Shown here in pieces: positions 1 through 17,909 of a stretch of 17,909 nt of DNA; position 1 is the first letter of the stretch; each line of letters starts with the position of its first letter. Both the position numbers and the translations under genes were made by a program. Source of the DNA: Mycolicibacterium xanthum. GTDB lineage: Bacteria; Actinomycetota; Actinomycetes; Mycobacteriales; Mycobacteriaceae. The notes beneath the pieces were generated by a model. The model did not search any database and had not been told where the DNA came from. It saw only the letters and a list, made by a program, of their open reading frames with translations. The stretch lies in the NCBI RefSeq assembly GCF_019710635.1, contig NZ_JAIFZS010000041.1, positions 1-17,909 of the forward strand. The letters run 5' to 3'.

Positions 1-274
1 CGCCACGCGATCCCTTCCAAGATCAACCGGTGATCGCTGAATCTGTTGCCCCGCTTACCTACATCCGAGGGCATAACCGACTCGACGGCCGACCAGAACC
101 CATCAGAAATCACACCCATCCGCGTCACGGTCACAATCGTCGCCGGTCAAGGCGCGAATATTACGGAGACACGCCCTAGTCCGATGGGAAGTGGATCTAC
201 TGGTGTGGCCTTCGTCGATGTAGCCATCGCTGATGCGGGCATGCGCGTTTGAAGGTGGGCTGGTCGCCGGAAGC

Positions 275-1045
275 TCAGAAGGGCGTTGGGATGGATTGGG
301 GCCAAGGCCCGGTTCTCTGCTCGATGTCGCCGGTCATGACACGCTTGGGTAACGTCACTTTCTTCCTCTTCACGGGCTCGTATGGGATCTGGCTGAGCAA
401 GTGGCTGATGATGTTGAGACGCGCCTTCTTCTTGTCGTCGGTGTGGGCCACATGCCACGGCGCCCACACCGTGTCGGTCGCGGCGAACATCGCATCGCGC
501 GCCCGCGAGTAATCGTCCCAACGCGCGTATGACGCCAAGTCCATGTCCGAGAGCTTCCAGATCTTGCGCGGATCCCCGATGCGGCTCTGCAGCCGGCGCG
601 TCTGTTCGTCGGCGCTGACCTCGAGCCAGTACTTGATGAGCCTGATGCCGGACTCCACAACCGCCTGTTCGACCGCGGGTGCGTTCTCGAGGAACCGCTC
701 AGCCTCGTCTTCCGTGCAGAAACCCATGACGCGTTCGACACCGGCGCGGTTGTACCAACTGCGGTCGAAGATCACGACCTCTCCTCCGGCAGGAAGGTGT
801 GGGATGTAACGCTGGACATACATCTGGGTCTTCTCGCGTTCGGTGGGCGCCGGCAGCGCGACGACGCGGAACACCCGTGGACTTACCCGTTCGGTGATCG
901 CCTTGATCGCGCCGCCCTTGCCCGCGGTGTCTCGGCCCTCGAACACGATGCAGACCTTCGCACCTGTGTCTTTGACCCACTCTTGCATCGCCACCAACTC
1001 GCCATGCAGGCGTCGCAACTCGTGCTGGTATTCCTTCTCATTCAT
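275..1045 (-). CDS. ppk2: Polyphosphate kinase 2 (PPK2) family protein; intact reading frame from an internal ATG
   Basis: 256-aa ORF with PPK2 motifs: Walker A-like FEGRDTAGKGG, ERVSPRVFRVVALPAPTEREKTQMYVQRYIPHLPAGGEVVIFDRSWYNRAGVERVMGF, and the FLENAPAVEQAVVESGIRLIKYWLEVSADEQTRRLQSRIGDPRKIWKLSDMD region. Confidence 0.93.
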   Translation of the reverse strand: MNEKEYQHELRRLHGELVAMQEWVKDTGAKVCIVFEGRDTAGKGGAIKAITERVSPRVFRVVALPAPTEREKTQMYVQRYIPHLPAGGEVVIFDRSWYNRAGVERVMGFCTEDEAERFLENAPAVEQAVVESGIRLIKYWLEVSADEQTRRLQSRIGDPRKIWKLSDMDLASYARWDDYSRARDAMFAATDTVWAPWHVAHTDDKKKARLNIISHLLSQIPYEPVKRKKVTLPKRVMTGDIEQRTGPWPQSIPTPF

Positions 1046-1076
1046 CTTCGGGCGCGCTCATTCATCTTCGGGCGCG
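1037..1076. repeat. Perfect tandem duplication, 2 x 20 bp (CTCATTCATCTTCGGGCGCG)
   Basis: 1037..1056 and 1057..1076 are identical on the + strand. Confidence 0.98.
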
Positions 1077-1167
1077 TGCGATCGGCACCCGCCAGCGCCG
1101 TGGCGGGCGGTGAGTCTGCCGCACGGCGGCGCTTGTCCTTGGTCTTCGCCTTCTTCTGCTTAGCCAC
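1042..1167 (-). other. Out-of-frame 5' leader ORF that looks like the original PPK2 N-terminus, displaced by a 20-bp tandem duplication
   Basis: GTG at 1167..1165 preceded by GAGGAG; reads VAKQKKAKTKDKRRRAADSPPATALAGADRTRPKMNERARR*; its stop overlaps the ATG at 1045 (ATGA). Removing one 20-bp unit gives ...RTRPKMNEKEYQHELRRL, in frame with PPK2. Confidence 0.7.
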
Positions 1168-1220
1168 GCCTGTTCAGCTCCTCAATGACGGACGCTACTG
1201 CTGATCTTGCGCTTCCATGG

Positions 1221-3998: not shown

Positions 3999-4359
3999 CG
4001 CCGATGGATATTACCCGGCGATTGCCGGGGTTGCGGGGGTGAATCGCGACGGTGACAGTGGCAAATCCGTGTCGCCGGCAGCACCGGTTCCATGTTGCCC
4101 CGATGCATCGAGTTGGGCCGTTACCGTCTTGTCGAACGCAACACGTTCAAGGTCGGTCAAGTCGGACTCGGTCAATACCGGTATCTCAGTGGCCGTCAAA
4201 CGTGGAGGACACAGTCGAATATGCGGTTGTTAACGTTTACACCCTGAACCGCCCACGCCAGCTCTCACGTTCCTTCCATACATGTACAAAATCCCGCAAT
4301 CATGCATCGAGCTGTTCGTCCGAATCAGCATCCGACAGACAGACGCCGGGGCCTTGCAT

Positions 4360-5376
4360 TCACGCCGTTTTGGGGGTCGGTTTCCAGGTCACCGCTGTGC
4401 CCGCCATCTGGAACTCGATCGGATCAGCGGGCCGGAACCTTCCCGAGATCTCGCCGGCAGCGTCAAGATCTGAGGCCAGGTCGAACATCTGAACCGGGGC
4501 GCCTTCTTGCAGATCCAGCTTTTCCAGATCGACCCATACGACGTTGGGCATATTCGTCAATTCGAAGTAGTACCGCCGGTGCGTGAGATCGCAGATCGTC
4601 CGCCACTGTGTCGGCGAGACGTTCGGCTTGACGGGATCCACGAAGCCGATCGGCGTGGCCATGTTCCGGATCACGCTGAGCACACCGGCGACGGCCTCTT
4701 GATACGACGCCGGATTCTGCGGCAGCTGGGTCAGGTAGTAGGCGCCCCGAACGAAACGATCTTCGGCTTCGGCGGTTCCCGGCAAGGGTTTCTTACCGCC
4801 CAGCCCCTCGTACTGCTTGAGCAGAATCAACTGCTCGTCGTAGGTCGGCGAATTCGTTACCACCGTGAACTGCGGCCCGTGATGGATCACGGGCTGGCCA
4901 TCGAGGATTTCGATGACGGCCGAATCACCGGTCGCGTCAGCCAGCGAGAGATGCATCGGCGCATCCGCCAGCTTGCCAAGGTGGATCATCTCGAACGAAC
5001 GCACCTGCAAGGACTTGGTCGCCTCGACCGCCTCGGCGACCGTCGCACAATTGTCCAGATAGTACTGAGCCCACAGCGAAACCGAGAGCCCGAGTCGTGC
5101 GGGATCGCGATCGCCGTACCGTGTTTCCGCCAGGTAGAGCATGCTCGCGGTCAGGCCCGCTGCGTTCATGCCATCAGGGACCGCGCAGTCCCAGACCGCC
5201 GCCACGACGCTGCCGTACTTCGAGGTCCACGTGATCGGATTGGTCTCGACCAGCCCCTCCCGCTCGACGCCGGCCGGAATCGCGTAGAGCTTGGTTCCCA
5301 TCCGCTCGGTCCAATCCATGTTCCGTCCGACAAGAACGGGCTGTCCTTCCACCTGCCACATCACTCGCGAGCACAT
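4360..5376 (-). CDS. Linear amide C-N hydrolase, choloylglycine hydrolase / penicillin V acylase-like (Ntn hydrolase)
   Basis: 338-aa ORF beginning MCSRVMW (candidate catalytic Cys2), with GRNMDW, DGMNAAGL and VVTNSPTYDEQL segments typical of this family. Confidence 0.88.
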   Translation of the reverse strand: MCSRVMWQVEGQPVLVGRNMDWTERMGTKLYAIPAGVEREGLVETNPITWTSKYGSVVAAVWDCAVPDGMNAAGLTASMLYLAETRYGDRDPARLGLSVSLWAQYYLDNCATVAEAVEATKSLQVRSFEMIHLGKLADAPMHLSLADATGDSAVIEILDGQPVIHHGPQFTVVTNSPTYDEQLILLKQYEGLGGKKPLPGTAEAEDRFVRGAYYLTQLPQNPASYQEAVAGVLSVIRNMATPIGFVDPVKPNVSPTQWRTICDLTHRRYYFELTNMPNVVWVDLEKLDLQEGAPVQMFDLASDLDAAGEISGRFRPADPIEFQMAGTAVTWKPTPKTA

Positions 5377-5414
5377 GGCCTATCTCCCTTCGGGTGTCTT
5401 GGATCGGTCATTCG

Positions 5415-6857
5415 CTAAACAGGTTCTTCAATCCCGAAATGTTCCAACGCGCCGTGGATGCAGCATTCGTAGTGACTTCTCTCATCCGGCAGCATCTGTC
5501 CTCCCGGCGGCTTCGGCAGTTCGTTGAGGCTTTTGTAGGGCTGGCCCTTCGTCTGTTTCTTGAAGTCTTGCCAGGCGGCCTTGATCAATGCCGGCTGGGT
5601 GAGGAGATCCAGCCCGGTGGCTGCCATCGTCTTGGCTGCCTGGATGGTCGCCTTGTGCCCGATGCTCATGCCGTGACACGCGGTGCAACCCCACTGATGC
5701 GGCGAGATGCCCTGCGGCCACGCTGCGTGGACGACTCCCATGGTCGGCACGTTCCAGCTGACGTCGCCGACATCGGACGAGCCGCCGACCTCCACCTTGG
5801 ATGTTGGCATTCCCGCCATCGCAGTGGCCATCCCCGTCTCGGGCAGGTCCATCTCCTTCTGGATCGCTTTGGCGTAGACCTGCTCGTCGTCGGTCCACTC
5901 GATCGGGAAGTACCGTTGCATGTGGCCGTACATGTTCTCGGCGAGCGGGTCATTGCCCACCACATCCAATGTTCCGGTGATCAAGGTGACCGTTTCCGTG
6001 GTCTGCGTTGACAACGCCGCGCCCTTGGCCATATCGATCAGCCAGTTCTTGTACTCCGTCACGTTCTCCGCACTCGGCCCCCGGTAACGGATGAGCACCT
6101 TGGCGTAGTCGGGAATGACGTTGACCGCCGTGCCCCCTTCCAGAATCTGATAGTGCAGCCGCGCGGTTGGCAGCATCTGCTCACGCATCATGTTGGCGGC
6201 GACGAGAAAGATCTCGACGGCATGCAGGGCGCTGCGGCCTTGCCAGGGAGCCTGGCCGGCGTGGGCAGTCACCCCGTTCCACTCGACGATCAAATCGACC
6301 ATGGCCGTGGAGTGAAAATTCCATACCGTGTTCAACGGTCCGGGATGATTGTGCAGGCAGGCGTCGAGTCCCTGGAAGGCCCCAGCCTGGGCCATGTAGT
6401 TCTTGCCGGTCATCTTTTCTTCGGCCGGACAGCCGAAGACCTTCATGGTGCCGGGAATCTCTTCCTTGTCCATGTGTGTCCTCAGCGCAATCGCGGCGCC
6501 GATCGACGTGGAGCAGATCAGGTTGTGCCCGCAGCCGTGGCCGTTGGTGTTGCCGCTCGGCGCCGGTGTCTTGGTGGGCTTGGTGTCGTTGCCGAGCCCG
6601 GGCAGAGCGTCGTATTCGACCAAGATGCCGATCGTGGGTGATCCGCTACCCCAGGTTGCGATCCACGAAGTGTCGAGTCCGCCGATGCCTCGATCGCCGA
6701 TCGCGAAGCCGTGTTTTTCCAACATCGCGGAGGCGTAGGCCGAGCTCTTCGTTTCTCCGAAACCCAATTCGGCGAACTCCCAGACATGCTGCGCGAGATC
6801 CCAGATCTCGTCGGCCACTGCGTCCACTTCGTTGCCGAGTTTTGAATAGTCAGACAT
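5415..6857 (-). CDS. M20-family amidohydrolase/peptidase, p-aminobenzoyl-glutamate hydrolase subunit B (AbgB)-like
   Basis: 480-aa ORF with VEYDALPGLG, GHGCGHN, CPAEE, TAHAGQAPWQGRSALHAVE, ILEGGTAVNVIPD, EVGGSSDVGDVSW. It lies 38 nt upstream of the C-N hydrolase on the same strand. Confidence 0.9.
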   Translation of the reverse strand: MSDYSKLGNEVDAVADEIWDLAQHVWEFAELGFGETKSSAYASAMLEKHGFAIGDRGIGGLDTSWIATWGSGSPTIGILVEYDALPGLGNDTKPTKTPAPSGNTNGHGCGHNLICSTSIGAAIALRTHMDKEEIPGTMKVFGCPAEEKMTGKNYMAQAGAFQGLDACLHNHPGPLNTVWNFHSTAMVDLIVEWNGVTAHAGQAPWQGRSALHAVEIFLVAANMMREQMLPTARLHYQILEGGTAVNVIPDYAKVLIRYRGPSAENVTEYKNWLIDMAKGAALSTQTTETVTLITGTLDVVGNDPLAENMYGHMQRYFPIEWTDDEQVYAKAIQKEMDLPETGMATAMAGMPTSKVEVGGSSDVGDVSWNVPTMGVVHAAWPQGISPHQWGCTACHGMSIGHKATIQAAKTMAATGLDLLTQPALIKAAWQDFKKQTKGQPYKSLNELPKPPGGQMLPDERSHYECCIHGALEHFGIEEPV

Positions 6858-7355
6858 GGGACCGCCACTTTCTTCAAGAATGATCAGGCCCGGAGGCCTC
6901 GATCAACGCATGTTCGCCTCGCTGCTGAATTGGCATGGCTCCGCCGGTGTGAACTCGGCTGACACCGGCGCCAAGAACGTTGGAACCGAGTGCCTCGAGT
7001 CTCTCGTCCCCGCTCCCTTGTCCAGGTTCAGCATGTCCAGGTCGATCCAGAAGATCACGGGCCGCAGCGTTGCCGAATGCTAACGCCCGAATTCGTGATC
7101 ACTCACCGTCCGCCAGAGCGTGGCGGAGGTGTTGGTTGCGCCGACGAGGTCTGCATTCGACGGAGCTTCGGTGCATCATCTCGCGTGAACCTGCCTCTTC
7201 AGATAGCAGTGTCCGCTTGACACTGCCAAACGTCACGATGTCCTGATCGGCGTCCACCGAAGTCCATGAGAATCACGTGCGAAGGCCGCAAGTAAGACAC
7301 GATCGAGCAAGAGCGCGACATGTCAGCGCCGAGAATTTCTGAAGGAGACCACGAC

Positions 7356-9017
7356 ATGAGCACCGGGGCCGTGACCGTTTATCTTGCCCGCAAGGTCCGC
7401 ACGATGGATCCCGGACGCCCGGAGGCGGAGGCCGTGGCCGTCCTGGATGGACGCGTCCTGTGCACTGGGACCCGGGAGTCGATGCAGCCGTGGCTGTCGG
7501 CTCATGAGGTCGTCGTTGACGACACTTTGAAGGACAAGGTCATCCTGCCCGGGTTCATCGAACCGCATACGCATTTCTGGATGTCGGCCGGGTTCGTGTC
7601 GATGGAATTCATCGGGCCGCTCCCGTGGCCGGCGCCCGGCGGCATGAACAAGCCTTTGTCGACGTTCGACGAGGTCATCGCCCATCTGCGCAAACTCCAT
7701 GAGCAGGAAAAGGATTTGACGAAACCGATCATCGCCTGGGGATACGACGAGGCGCAGCAGGGCGGCACCCTCAACCGTGACACGCTCGACCAGATTACTT
7801 CGGAACGCCCGATCTGGATCCTGTCGTGGGCGCCGCATTTCTACTACTTGAACAGCGCCGCGCTCGAGCGTGCGAACATTCCGGATGACCTGGACAGTCC
7901 CAACGTCCACCGCGATCCCGGCGGCCGGCTCACCGGCGTCTTCACCGAGCCGGCGGGCTTTGCGCTGAGTTGCGCTCCCGTTATTGATGAGATCACCCGG
8001 CTCTGCAGCGTCGAAGGTCTGAAGTTCATGGCCGCAATCGCCAATCGGGCAGGGGTGACCACGGTTTCGGACATGATGTTCGGTGTCATCAACGTCGACG
8101 CTGAATTGCAGGATCACCAGGAAGCGACTGCCGATCCCTCGTTCCCGGTCCGGATGCGCCTGGTGCCACATGCGGCGTCGTTCGCCAAGGCCCACGGTGA
8201 CAAAGCGGTCGACGTCATCGAGGACCTGCGCACACAGGAAACCGACAAACTCTATTTCCGTGGCGTCAAGTTCCAGACCGACGGCTCGTTTCCGTTGATG
8301 GGTTCGCGGGTGAACTTCCCAGGTTATCTCGACGGCACGAATGGCCAGACCGCCGACACCGACATCGTCAACGGCATGCTGCCGTATTGGAAGACCGGTA
8401 TCCAGATCCACTGCCATGCCAACGGAGACAAGGCGATTGACGACACGCTGGATGCGCTGGCGCAGCTCCAGGCAACCCATCCGCGGTTCGACCACCGATT
8501 CGCGATCGAGCACTACTCAATCAGCAACCCGATGCAGGCGCGCCGCCTGAAGGCTCTCGGCGGGGTGGCCAGCGTGAACAACTACTTCTGCCACTTCCGC
8601 GCCCTGCTGCACCGCACCCATGCCTACGGACCAGACCGCTCCGACACCGTGGCGCGGCTGGGCACCCTGCAGCGTGAAGGGGTCATCTTCGCGCTGCACT
8701 CCGACTACCCGCTGGTGGTCGTGCCGATGCATCCGCTCACCGCGGTCTACACCGCAGCGACCCGGATCGCCGAAGACGGTGAAACCGTGGTGGCCCCGGA
8801 CGAGTGCATCGGGGTCGAGCGCGCGGTTCGCGCAGTGACCATCGACGCCGCCTACATCCTCGGAATGGAGGACCAGATCGGCAGCCTGGAACAGGGCAAG
8901 TTCGCCGACTTCACCATCCTCGACCAGGACCCCTTCGAGGTCGATCCCACACACATCAAAGACATCCCGATCTGGGGCACCGCCTTGTCGGGCACGCTGT
9001 TCAAGGCCAAACAGTGA
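7356..9017 (+). CDS. Amidohydrolase-3 (YtcJ-like) family metal-dependent hydrolase
   Basis: ORF open from 7320; the ATG at 7356 is favoured because it is preceded by AAGGAGACC. Motifs: VILPGFIEPHTHFWMS, IQIHCHANGDKAIDDTLDAL, RFAIEHYSI, HSDYPLVVVPMHPLTAVYTA, GSLEQGKFADFTILDQDPF. Confidence 0.92.
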   Translation: MSTGAVTVYLARKVRTMDPGRPEAEAVAVLDGRVLCTGTRESMQPWLSAHEVVVDDTLKDKVILPGFIEPHTHFWMSAGFVSMEFIGPLPWPAPGGMNKPLSTFDEVIAHLRKLHEQEKDLTKPIIAWGYDEAQQGGTLNRDTLDQITSERPIWILSWAPHFYYLNSAALERANIPDDLDSPNVHRDPGGRLTGVFTEPAGFALSCAPVIDEITRLCSVEGLKFMAAIANRAGVTTVSDMMFGVINVDAELQDHQEATADPSFPVRMRLVPHAASFAKAHGDKAVDVIEDLRTQETDKLYFRGVKFQTDGSFPLMGSRVNFPGYLDGTNGQTADTDIVNGMLPYWKTGIQIHCHANGDKAIDDTLDALAQLQATHPRFDHRFAIEHYSISNPMQARRLKALGGVASVNNYFCHFRALLHRTHAYGPDRSDTVARLGTLQREGVIFALHSDYPLVVVPMHPLTAVYTAATRIAEDGETVVAPDECIGVERAVRAVTIDAAYILGMEDQIGSLEQGKFADFTILDQDPFEVDPTHIKDIPIWGTALSGTLFKAKQ

Positions 9018-10105
9018 CGCCCGATGCGAAGACACCCCAACAGGGCGGGTTGGCCGCCGATCCCTATACCACAGCCCAGGAAGCACAGCAGGCACTGTCC
9101 GGAATGGTCTTCGCGGCACTCAAGAACCGGGGACGCAAAATACGCGCGCCGGAACGGTCCCTGCCGCTGACCATCATCGGTGGTTTTCTGGGCTCGGGAA
9201 AGACGACGTTGTTGAACCATCTGCTCACCGAACCGCACGGACGCCGCCTCGTGGTGCTGGTCAACGACTTCGGCCGGATCAACATCGACGCGGCCCTGGT
9301 GGCCTCCCAGACCGACGACATGATCACCCTCACCAACGGTTGCGCCTGTTGCGCCGTGTCAGCCGACCTGACCAACACGTTGATCGAACTCGCCGAGCGT
9401 GACGTGGCCCCCGAGACGATCGTGCTCGAGGCCAGTGGCATCGCCGACCCGACCGGGATCGCGCAGACCGCGCTGACCAACCAGGCAGTCCACCTCGACG
9501 GCATTCTGGTTGCGATCGACGCCGAAACCCTTCACGAGCGCGCCGAGAATCCGCTGACCAGCAGGCTGTTCGGCAACCAGATCGCGGCTGCCGACCTGAT
9601 CGTGCTCACCAAAGTCGATCTGATCGACGAAGCGCAGCAGGCCCTGACATGGGAATGGCTCGCAACTCACCACCCCGACAAATCCGTCGTCGAAGCAATA
9701 GGGGGAGACATTCCGCCGGAGGTCGTCTTGCGCGTCAACACAACGCGCGGCATGCAAACCGCGGCTGGGGATCCTGAGGACCACGCACGCGCCTTCGAAA
9801 GCGTGAGTGTGACGATCGACGATCCGCTCGAGCGCGACCATCTGCACGCGTTCTTCAACAGCCTGCCGAAGGCGCTGCTGCGCGCTAAAGGTGTACTGCA
9901 CCTGGTGGACACGACCACACATCGCACGATCTACCAACGCGTAGGCGCACGCTGGAGCTGCACACCAGGCCAGCCATGGGAAGACGAGAGGCCGCGCTCG
10001 AGCCTTGTCTTCATCGGCCCACCGGGACTGCTGGACCCAACCACTACAAGAGTGCGCCTCGAGGCGTGCGTGGCAGGCCGCAATGCTGCGATGGACTCGG
10101 CCTGA
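9014..10105 (+). CDS. CobW/P47K-type G3E GTPase (putative metallochaperone), GTG start overlapping the upstream stop
   Basis: GTG 9014..9016 overlaps TGA 9015..9017. Motifs: GGFLGSGKTTLLNHLL (P-loop), VLVNDFG, NGCACCAV (CxCC), VLEASGIADP, LTKVDLID. Confidence 0.92.
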   Translation: MTPDAKTPQQGGLAADPYTTAQEAQQALSGMVFAALKNRGRKIRAPERSLPLTIIGGFLGSGKTTLLNHLLTEPHGRRLVVLVNDFGRINIDAALVASQTDDMITLTNGCACCAVSADLTNTLIELAERDVAPETIVLEASGIADPTGIAQTALTNQAVHLDGILVAIDAETLHERAENPLTSRLFGNQIAAADLIVLTKVDLIDEAQQALTWEWLATHHPDKSVVEAIGGDIPPEVVLRVNTTRGMQTAAGDPEDHARAFESVSVTIDDPLERDHLHAFFNSLPKALLRAKGVLHLVDTTTHRTIYQRVGARWSCTPGQPWEDERPRSSLVFIGPPGLLDPTTTRVRLEACVAGRNAAMDSA

Positions 10106-10184
10106 GAACTTGTGCCATGCGCGTTTCGACCACGGTGCACAGTGAATGTCTGCTCCTCGATCTGATTGGTGGCTGAGGGAGATC

Positions 10185-10868
10185 ATGGGAGCCGAAATCG
10201 CACCGCTGAGTACCAGCATCATGATGATCACCTACTTCGGCGATGTCGTGTTCGCGGTCAGCGGCGCACTGACGGCAGCCCGCTACCGGATGGATGTGCT
10301 CGGGTTCGTGTTGATCGGCACCATCACCGGGATCGGCGGCGGAACCCTCCGTGACCTGCTGCTGGGTCGCACCGTCTGGTGGACACAGAACCCGCTCGAG
10401 CTAATCCTCTGCATGGTGGCCGCCCTGGCGACCTTTCTGGTGATCAGAAGCCACATCAGCTACCGGAAGGGAATGATCTGGGCCGACGCCCTCGGCTTGT
10501 CGGCGTTCGGAGTCGTCGGCTGCCACATCGCTCTTGAATTCGGCGCGCCGTTTGTGATCGCGGTCTTCATGGGCATGGTGACCGCGACCGGAGGCGGGAT
10601 CATTCGTGATGTGCTCACCAACACCCAGCCCATGATCACGAGCGGACAGCTGTATGCCACCGCCGCACTACTGGGGTCGCTTACCTACGCTGGTCTGCGC
10701 CATTTCGGCGCCCCCGAAATCCCCACAGAACTGGGATCAGTCCTAGCAGCATTCGTCCTGCGGGCGTTGGCGATAACTCTCGACATCCGCATGGGCCCAC
10801 CCGGCGAATTCATTCGGTTCGGGAAACACCAGAATGGCCAGTCCGGAGGCCGCGGCTCCTCGAGTTGA
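10185..10868 (+). CDS. Trimeric intracellular cation (TRIC) channel / UPF0126 (YadS-like) family membrane protein
   Basis: ORF open from 10146; the ATG at 10185 has AGGGAG upstream. Internal duplication of FAVSGALTAARYRMDVLG...GTITGIGGGTLRDLLLG and GLSAFGVVGCHIAL...GMVTATGGGIIRDVL, multiple transmembrane helices. Confidence 0.88.
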   Translation: MGAEIAPLSTSIMMITYFGDVVFAVSGALTAARYRMDVLGFVLIGTITGIGGGTLRDLLLGRTVWWTQNPLELILCMVAALATFLVIRSHISYRKGMIWADALGLSAFGVVGCHIALEFGAPFVIAVFMGMVTATGGGIIRDVLTNTQPMITSGQLYATAALLGSLTYAGLRHFGAPEIPTELGSVLAAFVLRALAITLDIRMGPPGEFIRFGKHQNGQSGGRGSSS

Positions 10869-12032
10869 GGCGATCGGAGTGACATGCGCCGGTCTGACCT
10901 CCCGGACCCACTTCGCACGGCGCCGAAACAAATACGGGATGAAGTCAGCCAGGTACGCCGCTGAGGTGGGCGGCGCAGCCGCGCTACTCTTCCCGGCGGG
11001 CCCCGGCGCCGTCCTGGTGACGTTGCATATCCGACTACTGCATATTCCGGTGACCACAGCATCAGCGCGGGGAGCCCGCTGACGGCTATCCAGATTCGAA
11101 GCGAGGCGATCAGGGAATACCTGGAGCGTCTCGCTGGGCAGCTCGCCGAAGACTCGGCGGTAGAGCCCGGAAAACCGTCCCGGGTGCCAGAATCCCCAGC
11201 GCATAGCCACATCGGTGACCGTGCTGTCCGCGGTGTTCGCCATTCGTAGATCATGGCGGGCGCGATGGAGATTCCTGGCCCGGAAGAATGCGGTCGGCGA
11301 CACACCGAACTCCCTGTCGAATGCGGCCCTGATCCAACGGTCGGTCACGCCAATGGTGGCGGCCAGGGCCGACACCCGCGGACTCGGGCCGATTTGGTCG
11401 GCGGCTTCGAGACACGAACGGACGATTCGCGCCGATGCCTTCAACCTCGGTTCCGCCGGAACCGTCCCCGCGAGGGCGTCGTCCAGCGTCGTTCGCAAGT
11501 CGGCTTCCAGTACCGGGAGCAGTTCCGGAGTCACGATGCCGCTAAAAAGACAATCACAGACCGTCCTCAACAGGAGTCCCAACCGAGCGACCTCGTCGTC
11601 TTCCGTCACCGTGAGGCCGTCGGCTCCCGCGGTACCGGCCTCATCATGGGGAACGGTGAGGGCGGCAAAAGTGAGCGGCTGGCGGGCCGTACCACCGTGT
11701 TCACATCCGGGCGTGTAACGCCACAGGGACCGCGGATCGAGTTCGACACCGTTCCAGGAACCCTCGGCCAGGGTAAGGGGAACACCGATCACATCCGTGC
11801 CGGGATTCACCTCGCCGAACGTGACCAGAGGGAAGTCAAACGCACCAAAACTCGCCGATGTGTCGCCGAGTTGGAGCCCCCCGACGGTGACGTGGCCCCG
11901 AGTATTGGTGAGTTGGGCCGCTTCCAGAGGAATACCCGCGATGGCTTCCTCGATGACCTCGATATCGGTTCCGCGCACAACCATCGCCGGAACCGACCGC
12001 TCGCGCTGTGGGATATCGGTCCGGCCGGCCAC
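10743..12032 (-). CDS. AraC-family transcriptional regulator (with an unusual C-terminal extension)
   Basis: 429-aa ORF; C-terminal HTH region SALAATIGVTDRWIRAAFDREFGVSPTAFFRARNLHRARHDLRMANTADSTVTDVAMRWGFWHPGRFSGLYRRVFGELPSETL. Confidence 0.85.
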   Translation of the reverse strand: MAGRTDIPQRERSVPAMVVRGTDIEVIEEAIAGIPLEAAQLTNTRGHVTVGGLQLGDTSASFGAFDFPLVTFGEVNPGTDVIGVPLTLAEGSWNGVELDPRSLWRYTPGCEHGGTARQPLTFAALTVPHDEAGTAGADGLTVTEDDEVARLGLLLRTVCDCLFSGIVTPELLPVLEADLRTTLDDALAGTVPAEPRLKASARIVRSCLEAADQIGPSPRVSALAATIGVTDRWIRAAFDREFGVSPTAFFRARNLHRARHDLRMANTADSTVTDVAMRWGFWHPGRFSGLYRRVFGELPSETLQVFPDRLASNLDSRQRAPRADAVVTGICSSRICNVTRTAPGPAGKSSAAAPPTSAAYLADFIPYLFRRRAKWVREVRPAHVTPIASTRGAAASGLAILVFPEPNEFAGWAHADVESYRQRPQDECC

Positions 12033-12063
12033 AACTCGACCCTAACGAAATCGCGCGGTTCGA

Positions 12064-12083
12064 GTTCTGTTTCGGAACAGGAC
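12064..12083. promoter_or_regulatory. Imperfect inverted repeat GTTCTGTT-TCGG-AACAGGAC in the divergent araC-like / MBL intergenic region
   Basis: 8-nt arms with 7/8 pairing around a 4-nt spacer, 32 nt upstream of the AraC-like start. Confidence 0.4.
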
Positions 12084-12186
12084 CGCCACTGCCATAGCGC
12101 TGGTTCCCAAGGCCGCCGACGTCCGTTCTCAATGAAGTCGGCGGCACATCACAAGTCCGCCAGCGATAGTCTCGACAGTTCCGATA

Positions 12187-13511
12187 GTGGATATCGCGCC
12201 GAACGTCAGTGTGAAAAACTCCGCGATTGTGACCACGATGCCGACGAACCCATACGGCGGCGGCCCAGGCACTGGGATCAGCCTGCCCGAATACTTCAAG
12301 CCGACCCCCTCGGTGCAGAGCCGCAACCAGTACTACCCGGGCACCGAAGAACTCGGTGCTGACGAGATGCGGATCTCGTTCGTCGGTTCGACACCGTTCC
12401 CGCCGCGGCGCGACCAGGCGGGAACATCGATCATGGTCGAGCTGGGCAACGGTGAGCGGCTGTTCTTCGACTTCGGTCCCGGTTGTCTGCGCAACATCAT
12501 CTCGATGCAGGTGCCGCAGCAAGAAGTCAACGACATCTTCATCAGCCACCTGCACGTCGACCACTACCACGACATCTCCTACCTCCTCCCGTTCTCCGCA
12601 TGGTCGGGTCGCTACCTTCCACTTCGCGTCCACGGCCCGTCCGGCCGGACCCCGAACTGGGTACGCAAGCAATGATCGACGGAATGAAGCAGATGCTTCG
12701 ATGGCATCTGGAGGCCTTCGATCACTTCCCGATCGGCGATGGGTACGAAGTCGATGTGAACGAGTTCGACTGGAAGGATGAGAACGGCGTCTGTTTCGAC
12801 CGCAACGGCACCCAGGTCAGGCACTGGCGGCGATCACACGCCAAGGACGGGGCGAGCGCGTATCGACTCGACTGGAATGGGCTCAGCTTCGTGTGGACAG
12901 GTGACGGCCGACCCGACGAATTAACCGCGAAGTACGCCGCAGGTGTTGACGTGTTCGTCACGGAATGTCAGAACGACACTGCGAGATTGATCCAGCAGAA
13001 GTACGGGGTCCCCGAATGGCTCTACGACTACACCATTGACACCCATCACACCCCGCACTATGCGGCCGGCTACCTGATGAAGCAGGTCAACCCACGAATC
13101 GGCATGGTGACCCACTTTGAGTTCGAAGAGGATCTGATTGCCGAGACTGTGGCCGGAATTCGGGCCCACTGGGACGGGTTCTTCGCGTTCGGCGCCCCCG
13201 ACGTCGTGACGGTCAATGTGACCTCGGATGCGATCTGGATCCGCAAGGCAGTGCTCCCGGGTCTGACCGGCGCGCGAATTCCTGACTTCCGCAAGCTATT
13301 GGGCACAAAGGATGTACCTGAGGAATTAGATCTGCCCCGTCCTCGCCTGCCCCGCGAAGAACAGCAAGAGCAGCACACCCGAGATCTAGAGATCGATCCA
13401 CACACCTACTACCCTCCCGACGTGTACAAGGAGCCGCTGGTCCGGCTACCTGATCCGCTGACGATGCCCATTCGGCAGATCATGGAGAACTTCGGGTATG
13501 ACCTCGACTGA
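12187..13511 (+). pseudogene. MBL-fold metallo-hydrolase (resembling the family some annotations name GntH) interrupted by an apparent 1-nt frameshift near 12650
   Basis: The frame from 12187 encodes ...ISHLHVDHYHDISYLLPFSAWSGRYLPLRVHGPSGRTP and stops at 12675. The continuation (ELGTQAMIDGMKQMLRWHLEAFDHFPIGDGYEVDVNEFDW...) is in the -1 frame and stops at 13511. HxHxDH metal motif present. The start could also be the ATG at 12238. Confidence 0.85.
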
Positions 13512-14490
13512 TGCGCACGACACCGAGGTGTCGACCGCATGTGGTCAGTTCGTACCGAATGATCTCGTACCGGTCACTGTGCTCACGGGGTTCCTCGGAG
13601 CGGGGAAGACCACCCTGCTCAACCGGCTCCTTGCCGGAGAGCACGGCCGCAAGATCGCCGTGCTCGTCAACGATTTCGGCGATATCAACATCGACGCGGA
13701 CCTCGTCGTGGGCGTCGACGACGAGATGATCTCGCTGGCCAATGGGTGTGTGTGCTGCGAAGTCCGCGACGATCTCGTGGCCGCGATCATCGCACTGCTC
13801 GAGCGCGACATCAGGCCGGACCACATCGTGCTCGAAGCAAGTGGCGTGGCCGAGCCGATGAGTCTGGCCATGACGTTCTCGCAGGAGATGTTCGCCGCCC
13901 AACTCCGGCTCGACGGGGTCATCACGGTGCTCGACTGCGAGCAGTTCCTGGATATCCCAGATCTGATGGAGCACAAGCTCCGCCAGATCGTCTGCGCCGA
14001 CCTCGTCGTACTGAACAAGACCGACCTTGTTTCTCTTGACCAACTCAACGAGGTGCAGGCATGGATCAACAATCGGGTACATCGGATCCGCTACGTTCCT
14101 GCCATCTACGGCGATGTACCGGTCGACGTGCTCATCGGCCTCAACAGGACTGACGACATTGCTCCGGTACACGACGGCGAAGACCCGCACGGTGCGCGAT
14201 TCACCACGGCCAGCTTCAGAACAACAGCACCGATGGACCCGCACCGGCTGATGAGGGTGGCAAAGGAGCTACCCGGCAGCGTCTACCGGATGAAGGGCGT
14301 GCTGGCCAGCACCGACGAACCTGATCGCCGCTCCATCCTGCAGGTCGTCGGGCGACGAGTGTCGATCACGCCAGACGCTCCGTGGTACCAAACAGCCCCG
14401 TCCACACGGATCGTCATGGTCGGGGCGAACAACATGCCCGCCGAGGACATCGTCACCCTGTTGCAGGGCTGTACTACCGGCCCCTTGTGA
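13498..14490 (+). CDS. Second CobW/P47K-type G3E GTPase, overlapping the MBL-fold gene by 14 nt
   Basis: 330-aa ORF: LTGFLGAGKTTLLNRLL, VLVNDFGDINIDADLV, NGCVCCEVRDDL (CxCC), VLEASGVAEP, LNKTDLV, and a C-terminal VYRMKGVLA...LQVVGRRVSI CobW-C-like region. Confidence 0.92.
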   Translation: MTSTDAHDTEVSTACGQFVPNDLVPVTVLTGFLGAGKTTLLNRLLAGEHGRKIAVLVNDFGDINIDADLVVGVDDEMISLANGCVCCEVRDDLVAAIIALLERDIRPDHIVLEASGVAEPMSLAMTFSQEMFAAQLRLDGVITVLDCEQFLDIPDLMEHKLRQIVCADLVVLNKTDLVSLDQLNEVQAWINNRVHRIRYVPAIYGDVPVDVLIGLNRTDDIAPVHDGEDPHGARFTTASFRTTAPMDPHRLMRVAKELPGSVYRMKGVLASTDEPDRRSILQVVGRRVSITPDAPWYQTAPSTRIVMVGANNMPAEDIVTLLQGCTTGPL

Positions 14491-14545
14491 GGGCCGTCCC
14501 CAGGTACCGGTACAACACCCGCACCCGAAAGATCGGCCGGTCCGG

Positions 14546-14665
14546 TCAGGGTTGCAATCGTATCCACACCTGCCGGTCCAGGAGCATCCCGACGAGCAAC
14601 GCGAAGGGGTTGGATTCCAGCACGGCATAAGCCGGTGGATCTTGGACCAGTGGGAGGTTCGGTAT
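14546..14665 (-). pseudogene. Degenerate N-terminal fragment of an actinobacterial HhH-GPD base-excision repair-like gene
   Basis: Minus-strand frame reads IPNLPLVQDPPAYAVLESNPFALLVGMLLDRQV and then WIRLQP*; resembles the conserved N-terminus (QDPxADALLxxNPFALLxGMLLDQQ) of this family. ATG replaced by ATA and truncated after ~34 codons. Confidence 0.5.
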
Positions 14666-14715
14666 GTCGGCCAGTGTAGGACTGTGCGGCGTGAGGCAGC
14701 CCACCCGAGCCGGCC
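14655..14715 (+). repeat. Left copy of an imperfect direct repeat flanking the methyltransferase/HgcAB-like pair
   Basis: aggttcggTatgtcggccagTGtaggac matches aggttcggCatgtcggccagCTtaggac at 16630 (25/28); a weaker match extends to gagccggcc/gagccggtc. Confidence 0.6.
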
Positions 14716-14818
14716 AACGTCGAGTTGGGGCAGCCGCATGTGAACGTTCGTGCTCGAAGGCGACGAAGTCGGGCTCCGGCCACATTTTGCCGTGGCGTGC
14801 GCCGATAATCGGACTGCG

Positions 14819-15478
14819 ATGACTAGTTTCGTCTGGATGAAGGTTCTGGAGTCGGCGCCGGAGCGCTATGACCGCGGCATCCGGATGCTGTCGGGCGGGC
14901 GCATCGCCGCGGTCTACGAGCGCATCGCCGATCTGGTTGCTGCACCTGGCAAACGAGTCCTCGATATCGGCTGTGGCACCGGCGGCGTAACGGTGGCCTG
15001 CGCGGCCCGCGGTGCGACCGTGACCGGCATCGACATCGATGCGGGCATGCTGGAGATGGCCCGAACCAAGCCGCGCTCCACATCTGGCAGCGCGGAGTTC
15101 GTACAGCTTGGCGCGGCGGAAATCGAGGATCGCTTTGCCGCGGAAAGCTTGGATGCGGTCGTGTCATGTCTGGCGCTGAGCGAGATGTCGCCCGAGGAGC
15201 AGGACTACGTGCTTCGCGCCGCTTATTCGTGTTTGGCCCCTGGGGGCGCGCTGGTAATCGCTGACGAGACGACACCGGAGGGACGCCTTTCGCGGCTCGG
15301 GTATCGCCTGCGGCGGCTGCCGCTCGCGGCGGCGACATATCTACTCACTCAGACCACGACCAGGCCGCTGCGTGGTCTGTGCGCACGAGTGCAGGCAGCC
15401 GGGTTCTCGATCGCTTCGAAGGAGCGGATGTGGTCGGGGAGGTTCCTGATCCTGCACGCATACAAGGCGCGGTCATGA
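14819..15478 (+). CDS. Class I SAM-dependent methyltransferase, likely the corrinoid-protein-associated type (CpaM-like)
   Basis: ORF open from 14750; the ATG at 14819 gives MTSFVWMKVLESAPERYDRGIRMLSGGRIAAVYERIADL. SAM motif VLDIGCGTGGVTVACAARGATVTGIDID, plus LAPGGALVIADE. Its stop overlaps the next start (ATGA). Confidence 0.85.
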   Translation: MTSFVWMKVLESAPERYDRGIRMLSGGRIAAVYERIADLVAAPGKRVLDIGCGTGGVTVACAARGATVTGIDIDAGMLEMARTKPRSTSGSAEFVQLGAAEIEDRFAAESLDAVVSCLALSEMSPEEQDYVLRAAYSCLAPGGALVIADETTPEGRLSRLGYRLRRLPLAAATYLLTQTTTRPLRGLCARVQAAGFSIASKERMWSGRFLILHAYKARS

Positions 15479-16590
15479 AGATCACCGACTTTCCTGCGTA
15501 CCTCCGCGACCGGGTGTTGGGCATGCTGCCGCACCGCGCCCCGACTGGGCTGATCCGCATCGGGAAGCCGGACCGCCACTCGCCGGTGCTGGTCACCGGT
15601 AACTTCACGCTCACCGTGCGACGCCTTCGCGATGCGCTGCGTGGCCATGATGCTTGGTTGCTGGTGGCCAACAGCAAAGGAATCGATGTGTGGTGCGCTG
15701 CAGGTGGCGGCCACCTCACCCATCACGACATCATTTCCGCGATCCGTACCTCGGAGCTCGCACATGAGGTCGACCATCGGGAAATCATCTTGCCGCAACT
15801 CTGCGCCACCGGCGTCGAGCGCCCTCCGATCACCGAAGCGACGGGATTTGCGACGCGGTGGGGACCGGCACGACTCGAAGACCTGCCGGCCTACCTCGAC
15901 CGCGGGGCGCAGACGATCAAGAGCGACCGCTCCATGCGTTTTCCGGCCTGGGAACGCCTGGAGATGGCGGTGCTGCTCGTTGTGCCGATGCTGATTGTCC
16001 TGCTTCCGATTTTGGCGGGTCTGTTCGGTTGGGCAACCATGGCGGTGGGAGGTGCGACCGTCGGCTTGTTCGTGGCCGCGTTGTTCGGCCTGCTTCCATG
16101 GCTGCAGGTTCGAGGGCGTCGGCGCTTTCTGACATTCGCCGGCTTCGCAGCGGGGGCCGGCCTTTTCGGTTGCGCATTGTTGTCAATCGTTGACGCGGCG
16201 ACACCGGCTCGCCTGACGGCGGTGAGCGTCGCGGCAGTCGCCGCGATCGCGGTTGCGTCGATTGATCTCGCCGGGTTCACGCCCTGGTATGGGAGCTATA
16301 TCAACACTTTCCACAACGAGGCGCACATCGAATTGATGGCCGCCCGTTGCACGGCTGCGGCGGAGTGTGTGCAGGTGTGCCCGCGAGACGTGCTCGAAAT
16401 GAACGAGACTCAAGACAAGGTGGAGATCAGGAAACCCGATTGGTGCATTCAATGCGGCGCCTGCATCGTGCAGTGTCCTACCGATGCATTGCGCTTCCGA
16501 TACGGCGACGGCCGCGTCGTCGAGGCGCCGACCATACGTCGGACACGCATGAACATGCTGGGGCGCCGCAGCGTCGAAATGCCTGATTGA
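15475..16590 (+). CDS. hgcAB-like: HgcA-like corrinoid-binding membrane protein fused to an HgcB-like ferredoxin domain (HgcAB-like fusion)
   Basis: 371-aa product: GNFTLTVRRL...WLLVANSKGIDVWCAAGGGHLTHHDIISAIRTSEL (cap-helix-like motif), about 4 transmembrane helices, then CTAAAECVQVCP and CIQCGACIVQCPTDALRF ferredoxin motifs. Confidence 0.85.
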   Translation: MKITDFPAYLRDRVLGMLPHRAPTGLIRIGKPDRHSPVLVTGNFTLTVRRLRDALRGHDAWLLVANSKGIDVWCAAGGGHLTHHDIISAIRTSELAHEVDHREIILPQLCATGVERPPITEATGFATRWGPARLEDLPAYLDRGAQTIKSDRSMRFPAWERLEMAVLLVVPMLIVLLPILAGLFGWATMAVGGATVGLFVAALFGLLPWLQVRGRRRFLTFAGFAAGAGLFGCALLSIVDAATPARLTAVSVAAVAAIAVASIDLAGFTPWYGSYINTFHNEAHIELMAARCTAAAECVQVCPRDVLEMNETQDKVEIRKPDWCIQCGACIVQCPTDALRFRYGDGRVVEAPTIRRTRMNMLGRRSVEMPD

Positions 16591-16629
16591 TCATCCACCG
16601 TGGCGAGAAGGCGGATGCACCGACGCTGA

Positions 16630-16689
16630 AGGTTCGGCATGTCGGCCAGCTTAGGACGACCGGACACCGAGGTAGTACCGGAGCCGGTC
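16630..16689 (+). repeat. Right copy of the imperfect direct repeat flanking the methyltransferase/HgcAB-like pair
   Basis: See 14655..14715. On the minus strand this copy retains ATG CCG AAC CTT (MPNL), parallel to the left copy's ATA CCG AAC CTC (IPNL). Confidence 0.6.
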
Positions 16690-17003
16690 TACGGGACCCC
16701 AGCAGCTACCGGTTGGCCATCATGGCCTGCTGCTGATCGGGCAGCACCCCGGCCAGCGGCGCCAAGGCGTTGTCGGTGAGCAGCTTGCCGAGCCCTGACC
16801 GACCGCAAGGTGCTGGACTGCCGGGTCCTATTCGGCGCCCAGAGTCGATGACTTCCGGCCCCGGCCGTGGCTGCCGCGAGTCTGTGACCCTCAGACGGCC
16901 CCGTCCCCTATCCCGAAACGAACTTCGTGATGATCATCGAGACGAAAAGATGGACAAGAACATGATGTAGTGACAACGGTCCACCAAGGGGCGAAAACGG
17001 GAA

Positions 17004-17909
17004 ATGGCTGCTGAATACTCTCTTGTCATCAACAAGGGTCGGGTGATGGACCCTGAGACCAATTTCGACGGCATCCGGAATGTCGGTATCGAGGACGGCA
17101 GGATCGCCGCCATCACGACGAAGAAGATCACCGGCGAGGAGACCGTTGACGCCGAGGGGATGGTGGTGGCCCCGGGCTTCATCGACACCCATTGGCACTA
17201 CCACCGGCCCTGGTCCAACAAACTCGCCCTGCGTGATGGACGGACCACCGTCCTGGACTTGGAACTCGGCACCCACGGTCCCTACATCGATGAGTGGTAT
17301 CGGGAGCGGAAAGGGAACTCCCAGTTGAACTACGGCCAAGCCGTCGCCCACGAGTTCGCCCGTTCCGAGGTGCTGGATGGTTTCACCGGAGCCCAGGACG
17401 TCCCCTCGGCGATCAAGAGCCGCGCCGTGGGAACGGGGTGGTCGATGAAACGCCCAAACCTCGAGGAGGGCAACAGGATTCTCCAACTGATCGATGAAGG
17501 ATTGCAGGCCGGTGGGCTCGGTATCGGCTCCACGCTCGGCTATATGCGCGACGGCGTATCCGCCCGCGAGTTCTTCGAGGTACAAAAACTTGCCGGTCTC
17601 TATGGTCGGCAGACCGCTGCCCACTTTCGTTATACGCCCGGGACAGAGGTCACCGAATCCAACGGTATCCAGGAATTGCTGGCGAATGCGGCAGCCCTGG
17701 GCGCTCCGGCCATGGCCTGTCACTTCAACAATCCGGGCTACAACCTGGTGCATGAGCTGCTGGCCCGAATGAGGGAGCGCGGCATGAACGTCTGGGGTGA
17801 GATCTACCCCTACGCCGCCGGGTCGACGGCCCTCAACGCCGTCTTCCTGGAACCGGAGATGTGGGTCGAGACTCTCGGCCACCGGTACGAGGACACGATC
17901 CAGGACGTG
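17004..17909 (+). CDS. Amidohydrolase family protein, divergent N-acyl-D-amino-acid deacylase (D-aminoacylase)-like; 3' end beyond the window
   Basis: Open frame from the ATG at 17004 to the window edge: MAAEYSLVINKGRVMDPETNFDGIRNVGIEDGRIAAIT...VDAEGMVVAPGFIDTHWHYHRP...GLQAGGLGIGSTLGYMRDG...ACHFNNPG. Confidence 0.85.
   Translation, partial: MAAEYSLVINKGRVMDPETNFDGIRNVGIEDGRIAAITTKKITGEETVDAEGMVVAPGFIDTHWHYHRPWSNKLALRDGRTTVLDLELGTHGPYIDEWYRERKGNSQLNYGQAVAHEFARSEVLDGFTGAQDVPSAIKSRAVGTGWSMKRPNLEEGNRILQLIDEGLQAGGLGIGSTLGYMRDGVSAREFFEVQKLAGLYGRQTAAHFRYTPGTEVTESNGIQELLANAAALGAPAMACHFNNPGYNLVHELLARMRERGMNVWGEIYPYAAGSTALNAVFLEPEMWVETLGHRYEDTIQDV

Follow-up and report, generated by a model that had tools for sequence, protein, structure and literature searches.

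The window analysed here, a 17,909-nt stretch of the Mycolicibacterium xanthum genome (assembly GCF_019710635.1, contig NZ_JAIFZS010000041.1, positions 1 to 17,909 of the forward strand), carries a two-gene module: cpaM, which encodes a small S-adenosylmethionine (SAM)-dependent methyltransferase, is followed by a gene for a membrane protein that joins an HgcA-like corrinoid part to an HgcB-like ferredoxin. We propose, with a probability of about one half, that the module is a paralogue of the mercury-methylating HgcAB and that its two proteins together transfer a methyl group from SAM by way of a corrinoid: CpaM would load the cobalt with the methyl, and the ferredoxin domain would re-reduce it. 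The family is already catalogued, and the window pair is a further member rather than a new system: fused HgcAB proteins have been described since 2015 (Podar et al.; PMC4646819), curated NCBIfam models exist for both partners, and the protein already has a name in UniRef, so that the original prediction, made from the letters of the window, overrated its novelty. What is new here is (i) the quantified obligate coupling of the two genes; (ii) widespread single-chain CpaM-corrinoid-ferredoxin proteins; (iii) a three-Cys Fe-S signature, together with the loss of mercury-linked cysteines, in a large, mostly aerobic-soil subclade; and (iv) cassette-like repeats.

The HgcAB-like part of the module is one chain, as had been predicted. 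It scores 389.3 bits against the NCBIfam model NF043039, “HgcAB-like fusion protein” (cut-off 285), aligning through residues 10-340 to profile positions 4-350 of 350. Pfam places CdhD (PF03599, 45.5 bits) at residues 19-113 and Fer4_7, Fer4 and Fer4_21 within residues 279-342, and the family profile matches corrinoid iron-sulfur protein (CFeSP) chains 4djd_C, 2h9a_A and 4c1n_A in the Protein Data Bank (PDB) over residues 18-142 (E ~1e-10 to 1e-11). The corrinoid domain is a homologue of the C-terminal domain of the CFeSP large subunit and of HgcA; the relationship to this domain, on which the original prediction had staked its case, is thus present. An AlphaFold2 (AF2) model built from 65 homologues (pLDDT 85.5, pTM 0.80) contains a corrinoid-type α/β domain, four long helices and a small ferredoxin fold; pLDDT in the membrane-helix region is mostly 85-96, and a hydropathy scan likewise gives four hydrophobic segments. 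Its best Foldseek match in the PDB is the deposited HgcAB model 9a0b_A (E 1.8e-11, 31% identity, 288 columns), followed by CFeSP large subunits, which match in the B12 domain only (root-mean-square deviation, rmsd, 2.2-2.6 Å, ~128 columns); this fold search found no experimental HgcA structure. The membrane helices of the AF2 model are even in number, which should put the B12 domain and the ferredoxin domain on the same side of the membrane. As modelled, then, a single membrane protein unites a B12 domain of the HgcA/CFeSP type, four predicted helices and a same-side ferredoxin domain. It is not a CFeSP large subunit: NF003195 (AcsC/CdhE) gives 62.6 bits against a cut-off of 306 and covers only profile positions 321-445 of 450, and the PDB CFeSP chains align solely through their C-terminal ~120 residues, with no match for their N-terminal [4Fe-4S] domain and TIM barrel.

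Both genes have a third-position G+C of 0.76 in a contig with 62-65% G+C, as is to be expected of real coding sequence. The 371-aa protein is identical to a fusion recorded for Mycobacterium sp. Y57, in keeping with the actinobacterial host that had been guessed from the sequence; NCBI names this protein “4Fe-4S dicluster domain-containing protein”, UniRef “HgcAB-like fusion protein”. The ATGA that joins the two genes lies exactly where it had been read (Table 1) and suggests, from its layout, translational coupling of cpaM with the fusion gene.

How general is this pairing? It was followed through the best 80 of 396 matching stretches in a collection with one genome each for 185,579 species. 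These loci come from Actinomycetota, Acidimicrobiia, Alpha- and Gammaproteobacteria, Myxococcota, Acidobacteriota, Gemmatimonadota, Planctomycetota, Deinococcales, Thermoplasmata and Bathyarchaeia; the Alphaproteobacteria among them are Stellaceae, Rhodomicrobiaceae, Rhodoblastus, Zhengella and the isolate Allgaiera indica. Of the 79 testable loci, 78 have a gene for a CpaM homologue (45-81% identity) immediately before the fusion gene and in the same orientation, and the exact 4-nt overlap seen in the window recurs in 69 of 77. Since the same gene order and strand are kept in loci from so many phyla, the arrangement is not due to chance; the adjacency is near-obligate, and the co-occurrence that the original prediction had asked about is borne out. 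CpaM was not seen in two of the 80 loci: one has just 115 nt of upstream DNA, and in the other, L042, tandemly repeated, element-like DNA (1-928), in which a ~50-codon stretch occurs twice, lies directly before the fusion gene. More distant relatives at 30-35% identity (L083, L084, L086) also have a methyltransferase gene of ~220-250 codons abutting or overlapping the 5' end of the fusion gene. At L086 (30% identity), the methyltransferase-fusion pair has two further same-strand genes in front of it, one of the radical-SAM type and one for a 194-aa product (2316-3245, +). Long open reading frames (ORFs) that span both genes in some loci (e.g., L044 6927-9116) are not gene fusions; the fusion frame merely stays open upstream in G+C-rich DNA, and the frames of the two genes differ.

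True gene fusions do exist. When 1.84 billion representative proteins were searched exhaustively with HMMER (1,604 clusters at E <= 1e-3, 161 at E <= 1e-30), triple fusions of 537-644 aa came to light, in which a single chain comprises CpaM, the corrinoid and membrane domains and, mostly, the ferredoxin; most of them pass both NCBIfam cut-offs. A search with one of them, P0189, added at least 119 more clusters at 94-100% coverage and 44-56% identity. Altogether the single-chain proteins include P0160, P0163, P0181, P0183, P0189, P0199, P0222 and P0271-P0389. Several triple fusions sit on long contigs, up to 2.9 Mb; some are ascribed to Draconibacterium, Calditrichaeota and an Ignavibacteria-like vent metagenome bin. 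The AF2 model of the P0189 triple fusion (pTM 0.82) is consistent with a defined domain arrangement; the cap helix is its least confident part, as expected for a model from which the cofactor is absent. Such single-chain proteins are classical evidence, of the Rosetta-stone kind, that CpaM and the corrinoid domain act together. A separate, N-terminally extended subtype (P0179, P0192, P0210) has an extra membrane region of 120-190 residues, and some of its members have Cys-rich tails, e.g., SCACVYC. The literature searched mentions neither CpaM, nor the “HgcAB-like fusion”, nor their pairing, and is equally silent on triple fusions, a methyltransferase partner and flanking repeats; the association of CpaM with a corrinoid protein is otherwise recorded only in the names of NCBIfam models.

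By its sequence, CpaM is a class-I SAM-binding methyltransferase. The name, too, was correctly predicted: the protein scores 282.9 bits against NF043040, “corrinoid protein-associated methyltransferase CpaM” (cut-off 180), with the DVU_1556 family as runner-up at 61 bits, and aligns to the family profile from residue 3 on; its Pfam matches are Methyltransf_25/11/12 and Ubie_methyltran. The SAM-binding residues D49, G51, G53, G55 and D72 do not vary among 76 orthologues, nor do their counterparts in the triple fusions. The nearest characterised relatives are small-molecule methyltransferases such as UbiE/MenG, UbiG, phosphoethanolamine N-methyltransferases, MitM and Rv0560c. CpaM does not pass as an ArsM-type arsenite methyltransferase, with 36.9 bits against the ArsM model NF008823 (cut-off 263), and ArsM-like metalloid binding is out because there is no conserved set of cysteines: the sole Cys conserved in two-gene and fused CpaM is C52, in SAM motif I, and C61 is replaced by Ala in triple fusions.

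Table 1. Features of the cpaM-fusion module and its borders in the window (residue numbers refer to the fusion protein).
Feature	Position	Strand	Basis
Upstream intergenic region, 328 bp, presumed own promoter of the module	14491..14818	+	Context
Left copy of 28-nt direct repeat	14655..14682		25/28 identical to right copy
cpaM, class-I SAM-dependent methyltransferase, 219 aa	14819..15478	+	ORF, NF043040, Pfam
Fusion gene, HgcAB-like fusion protein, 371 aa	15475..16590	+	ORF, NF043039, AF2, Foldseek
ATGA start/stop overlap (ATG of fusion gene, TGA of cpaM)	15475..15478	+	Read in the sequence
Corrinoid (B12)-binding domain, residues 19-143	15529..15903	+	Pfam CdhD, PDB CFeSP profile matches, Foldseek
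Cap-helix motif D71-V-W-C74-A-A-G-G-G79	15685..15711	+	W73, C74, A75, G78 and G79 invariant in 65 homologues
Cys74, putative lower axial thiolate ligand of cobalt	15694-15696	+	Analogy with HgcA C93 (PMC11588087)
Membrane domain, four predicted helices (residues 158-184, 186-205, 217-238, 244-268)	15946..16278	+	AF2, hydropathy
HgcB-like C-terminal ferredoxin domain, residues 283-343	16321..16503	+	Pfam Fer4 families, AF2 ferredoxin fold
Fe-S motif 1, C292-x2-A295-x2-C298-x3-C302-P303, without the canonical second Cys	16348..16383	+	Sequence
Fe-S motif 2, C324-x2-C327-x2-C330-x3-C334-P335, complete, four Cys invariant	16444..16479	+	Sequence, homologue alignment
Right copy of 28-nt direct repeat, 40 nt past the fusion stop codon	16630..16657		25/28 identical to left copy

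Is the fusion protein a mercury methylase in another guise? Genuine HgcA carries the cap-helix motif N(V/I)WC(A/S)(A/G)GK (PMC10087281), which serves as the high-stringency HgcA criterion (Capo et al., 2022), and has five membrane helices and, in most members, a CC/CU extension at the N-terminus; in HgcB, both CX2CX2CX3CP motifs are complete, and Cys73 and a terminal Cys-Cys are important for methylation (PMC11588087, bioRxiv 10.1101/2022.07.06.499078). The fusion protein falls far under the cut-offs of both models, with 168.3 bits against 275 for HgcA (NF040863) and 54 against 99 for HgcB (NF040864), and its first Fe-S motif is incomplete. Its cap helix reads DVWCAAGG; the commonest variant is NVWCAAGG, and a K-ending is absent from the listed variants of 120 close homologues. 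The N-terminus, MKITDFPAYL..., has no Cys and hence no CC/CU motif, and 80 of 81 clade members, the window protein included, have no Cys beyond the last Fe-S motif; the metal-binding cysteines of HgcB, Cys73 and the C-terminal Cys-Cys, are absent; the membrane helices number four against five in HgcA, by prediction only. Two cultured carriers of a fused HgcAB that were tested, Pyrococcus furiosus and Methanococcoides methylutens, made no methylmercury (PMC4646819, PMC5893877). On account of the sub-cut-off scores, the altered cap motif, the missing cysteines and these negative cultures, the fusion protein is not filed as HgcA or HgcB. The likeness to HgcAB, as known from Pseudodesulfovibrio mercurii ND132, nevertheless extends to a homologous B12 domain with the cap-helix Trp-Cys, a membrane domain next to it, a homologous two-motif ferredoxin as electron supplier and, for HgcAB, SAM as the ultimate methyl source (PMC11588087). 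The differences are that HgcAB is two proteins and the window system one chain, that the cap ends in GK there and in GG here, that the window module almost always comes with a dedicated SAM methyltransferase, and that hosts of the window family include aerobes. With the fused HgcAB of Podar et al. (P. furiosus, M. methylutens, OP8/OP9) and with NF043039/NF043040 the window proteins share family and architecture; unlike the 2015 proteins, they belong to a distinct subclade whose first Fe-S motif has three cysteines.

This subclade is highly conserved (50-82% identity, ~371 aa), and its hosts are mostly soil Actinomycetota, Proteobacteria, Myxococcota, Acidobacteriota and Gemmatimonadota. In each of the 120 close homologues, a full motif is paired with one that has three Cys. 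The position of the second Cys in motif 1 is neither Cys nor Asp in any of the 81 clade members, being Ala in 59 and otherwise Thr, Ser, Val, Ile, Arg, Lys or Gln. Two complete Fe-S motifs are found in more distant relatives and in all classifiable triple fusions. Read by analogy with 7Fe ferredoxins, in which a three-Cys motif accompanies one [3Fe-4S] and one [4Fe-4S] cluster, the pattern suggests that the ferredoxin domain holds one cluster of each kind; a three-Cys [4Fe-4S] cluster with an open iron site in motif 1 is an equally possible reading of the same residues.

The proposed cycle would begin with reduction of the cobalt to Co(I) by the ferredoxin domain. CpaM would then settle on the upper face of the corrinoid and pass the methyl group of SAM to the cobalt, giving methyl-Co(III) with Cys74 as lower ligand, and would thereby play the part that MeTr plays for CFeSP, or the SAM-binding reactivation module for MetH. 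Next, an acceptor at the membrane interface would take over the methyl group, which would probably depart as the equivalent of a radical or carbanion. Three residues of this interface, R161, E163 and D264, show little or no variation and persist in triple fusions. With every turnover the fused ferredoxin would reduce the oxidised cobalt again. Hg(II) is an unlikely acceptor. Genuine HgcAB offers the precedent: Co(I) forms via the HgcB clusters, SAM converts it to methyl-Co(III) with a cap-helix Cys thiolate as ligand, the methyl departs as a radical or carbanion, and HgcB supplies two electrons per cycle (PMC11588087). The original prediction had the corrinoid protein receive its methyl group from SAM rather than from methyltetrahydrofolate. 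The couple of SAM and corrinoid gains from the near-obligate adjacency and the single-chain proteins, whereas the contrast is outdated, as work of 2024 demonstrated the direct methylation of HgcAB itself by SAM (PMC11588087); the direction of flow, from CpaM to cobalt, is one we infer.

Other corrinoid systems share single features with the module. CFeSP and MeTr of the Wood-Ljungdahl pathway (AcsCD/AcsE) have a homologous B12 domain (rmsd ~2.3 Å over ~128 residues), and there, as proposed for the window pair, a separate methyltransferase docks on the corrinoid protein and methylates Co(I), with an Fe-S cluster for reduction. The donor in that system is methyltetrahydrofolate, handled by a TIM-barrel enzyme, in contrast to SAM and a Rossmann enzyme in the window; CFeSP is, moreover, a soluble heterodimer that has a [4Fe-4S] domain of its own at the N-terminus; it passes the methyl on to the Ni centre of acetyl-CoA synthase, and no electrons are consumed per turnover. 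MetH resembles the module in principle: a SAM-binding module and an electron donor both reach its B12 module, the cobalt is reductively methylated, and the modules sit on one chain, as in the triple fusions. It differs in that no sequence relationship was detected, in that its SAM module has another fold and serves repair only, and in being soluble with defined homocysteine and folate modules. In class B radical-SAM methylases and TsrM, to which Zheng et al. liken HgcAB (PMC11588087), SAM methylates cobalamin and the methyl then passes to a non-nucleophilic acceptor; the window system, by contrast, lacks a radical-SAM domain, belongs to another B12 domain family and is membrane-embedded, and its three-Cys motif lies in a ferredoxin fold and is not a CX3CX2C site.

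Several points weigh against a CpaM that loads the cobalt. Locus L042 has no CpaM upstream, and the N-terminally extended subtype has no methyltransferase neighbour in the single locus seen (L085 1751-3193). A [3Fe-4S] cluster, if present, has a potential that is usually too high for unaided formation of Co(I). We know of no class-I Rossmann methyltransferase that methylates protein-bound cobalamin. Fusion and adjacency prove a shared pathway, not which partner gives a methyl group to which, and corrinoid binding, SAM use and methyl flow are, for all members, what we infer. If SAM can methylate a corrinoid protein of this kind by itself, why have a dedicated loader in the first place? HgcAB is methylated by SAM at 0.15 per s, with a dissociation constant of 33 µM, and needs no extra methyltransferase (PMC11588087); a dedicated loader is therefore not obviously required.

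The same observation opens the way to an explanation that we consider doubtful but worth keeping in view: the corrinoid domain would load itself from SAM, as HgcAB does with no helper protein (PMC11588087), and CpaM would be a second, conventional methyltransferase that acts on the same substrate or product, so that the pathway would combine cobalamin-type with SAM-type (methyl cation) methylation. The nearest characterised relatives of CpaM, which are small-molecule enzymes, would fit this role, and enzymes of consecutive steps are often adjacent or fused. CpaM, however, has no conserved residues that hint at a substrate site, its only shared Cys being in SAM motif I; no conserved substrate-supplying gene lies nearby; and the 1:1 coupling, the 4-nt overlap and the fusion N-terminal to the B12 domain via short linkers of ~20-70 residues resemble modular B12 enzymes, whose modules reach the cofactor by turns. 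Rather unlikely, in our judgement, is a reductive corrinoid enzyme, e.g., one for halomethane dehalogenation, whose product CpaM would methylate or detoxify. A permanently fused ferredoxin suits the consumption of electrons at each turnover, a TetR-type regulator gene upstream in 25 of 80 loci (see below) hints at an organic inducer, detoxification genes typically show such cassette-like mobility, and heterologous HgcAB dechlorinates CCl4 according to a 2026 preprint (bioRxiv 10.64898/2026.04.26.720869). That preprint, which is not peer reviewed, concerns genuine HgcAB; no conserved dehalogenase-associated genes are found near the module, and such a function leaves unexplained the near-obligate SAM methyltransferase and its fusion to the B12 domain.

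Two further explanations carry much less weight. A functional mercury methylase, as an aerobic version of the fused HgcAB, is very improbable, even though the homology to HgcA and HgcB runs throughout, the cap-helix Trp-Cys is kept in a motif that departs from the HgcA consensus mainly at its last position, and, as Podar et al. point out, the failure of P. furiosus to methylate does not prove the fused protein incapable (PMC4646819). Set against this are the low model scores, the absent HgcB and N-terminal CC/CU cysteines, and the lack of methylmercury from both cultured organisms tested, which are outside the window's subclade; it would also be strange for a horizontally spreading gene of aerobes to serve the making of a more toxic product. 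It is harder still to believe that CpaM is a maturation or cofactor-tailoring enzyme that methylates the lower ligand of the corrinoid or a residue of the fusion protein: SAM-dependent methyltransferases do modify benzimidazole lower ligands, and adjacency by itself is compatible with this role, but a stoichiometric one-chain fusion in more than 100 clusters, together with translational coupling, is unusual for a maturation factor, and no other conserved cofactor-biosynthesis genes lie nearby.

The two-gene module is self-contained, standing alone with its own intergenic regions, and it appears to be a small mobile or attachment-site (att)-flanked cassette that is unrelated to the hydrolase and CobW-type GTPase genes next to it. 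The direct repeats at its borders (Table 1) are what makes it look mobile: their 20-nt core has two matches in the window and none in 200 shuffles, with weaker similarity over ~40 nt. At L014, perfect 59-nt repeats (6913-6971 and 9214-9272) bracket the module; they duplicate the 3' end of a tRNA-Leu(taa) gene next to it, and between the copies lie only promoter-like non-coding DNA and the two module genes. At L074, a 136-nt repeat, 87% identical, flanks the module (7121-7253, 9131-9265). The window, L014 and L074 are from unrelated genomes, and in none of the three is an integrase gene present inside the flanking repeats. Horizontal transfer is also indicated by the 77% identity of the Mycobacterium fusion protein to a protein from a Stellaceae metagenome-assembled genome. 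Contig L081, which has the closest relative of the upstream CobW gene for which DNA is available, is 88% identical over window positions 12599-14471, lacks the module and diverges completely from ~14471, which puts the module at a synteny break; the comparison with L081 gave no clean empty site. Scans for regulatory signals returned little: no Rfam family, cobalamin riboswitch included, reaches its gathering score in the whole window; no sigma-70 consensus or promoter-like site is found near the module; and the one terminator-like site near it falls inside the coding region, a count not above that in shuffles.

Which genes, then, accompany the module elsewhere? All-against-all clustering of flanking ORFs yields a sole consistent extra neighbour, a TetR-family regulator of ~205-225 aa in 25 of the 80 loci. 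Its gene lies directly upstream of cpaM, often overlapping it, in several phyla, Thermoplasmata included (loci within L017-L076, e.g., L038 6710-7339, +); the window has no such gene. A P2/P3-type cation P-type ATPase gene is near the module in 12 of 81 loci, with the window counted, within ~8 kb and in variable position and orientation (e.g., L016 9611-12793 and L050 3040-5790); that of the window (1221-3998, -) is ~11 kb away. The impression is that this proximity is commoner than expected for a gene with a few copies per genome.

The remaining genes of the window include two COG0523/CobW-type GTPases, a GntH-like metallo-β-lactamase (MBL) hydrolase, amidohydrolases, a UPF0126/glycine-transporter protein and an AraC regulator. 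A functional link to them was considered and dropped: none recurs beside the module in the 80 loci, bar one match for each CobW-type gene. The CobW-type GTPases are no evidence for B12 synthesis either, with scores of 195.7 and 152 against a cut-off of 332 for true CobW. One of them (13498-14490) is overlapped by the MBL-fold hydrolase gene (12483-13511, likely start at 12672 or 12684), and the pair is conserved in L081 at 88% nucleotide identity; ~160 nt directly upstream of the MBL gene (12440-12598) have no counterpart in the otherwise collinear L081. The hydrolase scores 350.6 against a cut-off of 333 for “guanitoxin biosynthesis GntH” over profile positions 109-372 only; the label is probably over-specific, and no other guanitoxin genes are present. 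The second CobW-type GTPase (~9158-10105) follows a 565-aa amidohydrolase (region 7320-10105), and genes of the M20 and choloylglycine-hydrolase families occupy 4360-6857 (-); metallohydrolases, paired with GTPases of the metallochaperone type, abound on the contig. Gene boundaries are uncertain around the AraC-type ORF (10743-12032, -), whose helix-turn-helix ends 125 residues short of its C-terminus and which overlaps both a 369-aa ORF with no family match (11253-12362, +) and the 3' end of the UPF0126/glycine-transporter gene (10146-10868, +). Downstream of the module, ~410 bp of non-coding DNA lead to a plus-strand amidohydrolase gene (from ~17004; 17004-17909) that runs off the contig.

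Environmental surveys of mercury methylation routinely pick up fused HgcAB genes and then set them aside, and the question of their function dates from 2015. The pairing with CpaM, the loss of the mercury-linked cysteines and the mobile-module behaviour argue that these genes are not to be counted as mercury methylators. Mycobacterium sp. Y57, an isolate with the two-gene module, is a possible practical host for knockouts and expression, and the ligand of the TetR regulator might name the class of substrate. If CpaM does load the cobalt, this would be a new way to charge cobalamin with a methyl group, with perhaps a new methylated product at the end of it. A bolder idea, to which we give only a slim chance, is that the subclade is an oxygen-adapted, horizontally mobile cassette of aerobic soil bacteria that inverts the polarity of the methyl group: CpaM would methylate protein-bound cob(I)alamin, and the methyl would go on, as a radical or carbanion, to an electrophilic acceptor beyond the reach of SAM enzymes, e.g., a metal or metalloid cation. 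Were this true, methylation of cob(I)alamin would be a reaction new to the class-I methyltransferase fold, and organometal(loid) compounds could be made biologically under aerobic conditions, which may bear on the unexplained formation of methylmercury in oxic environments.

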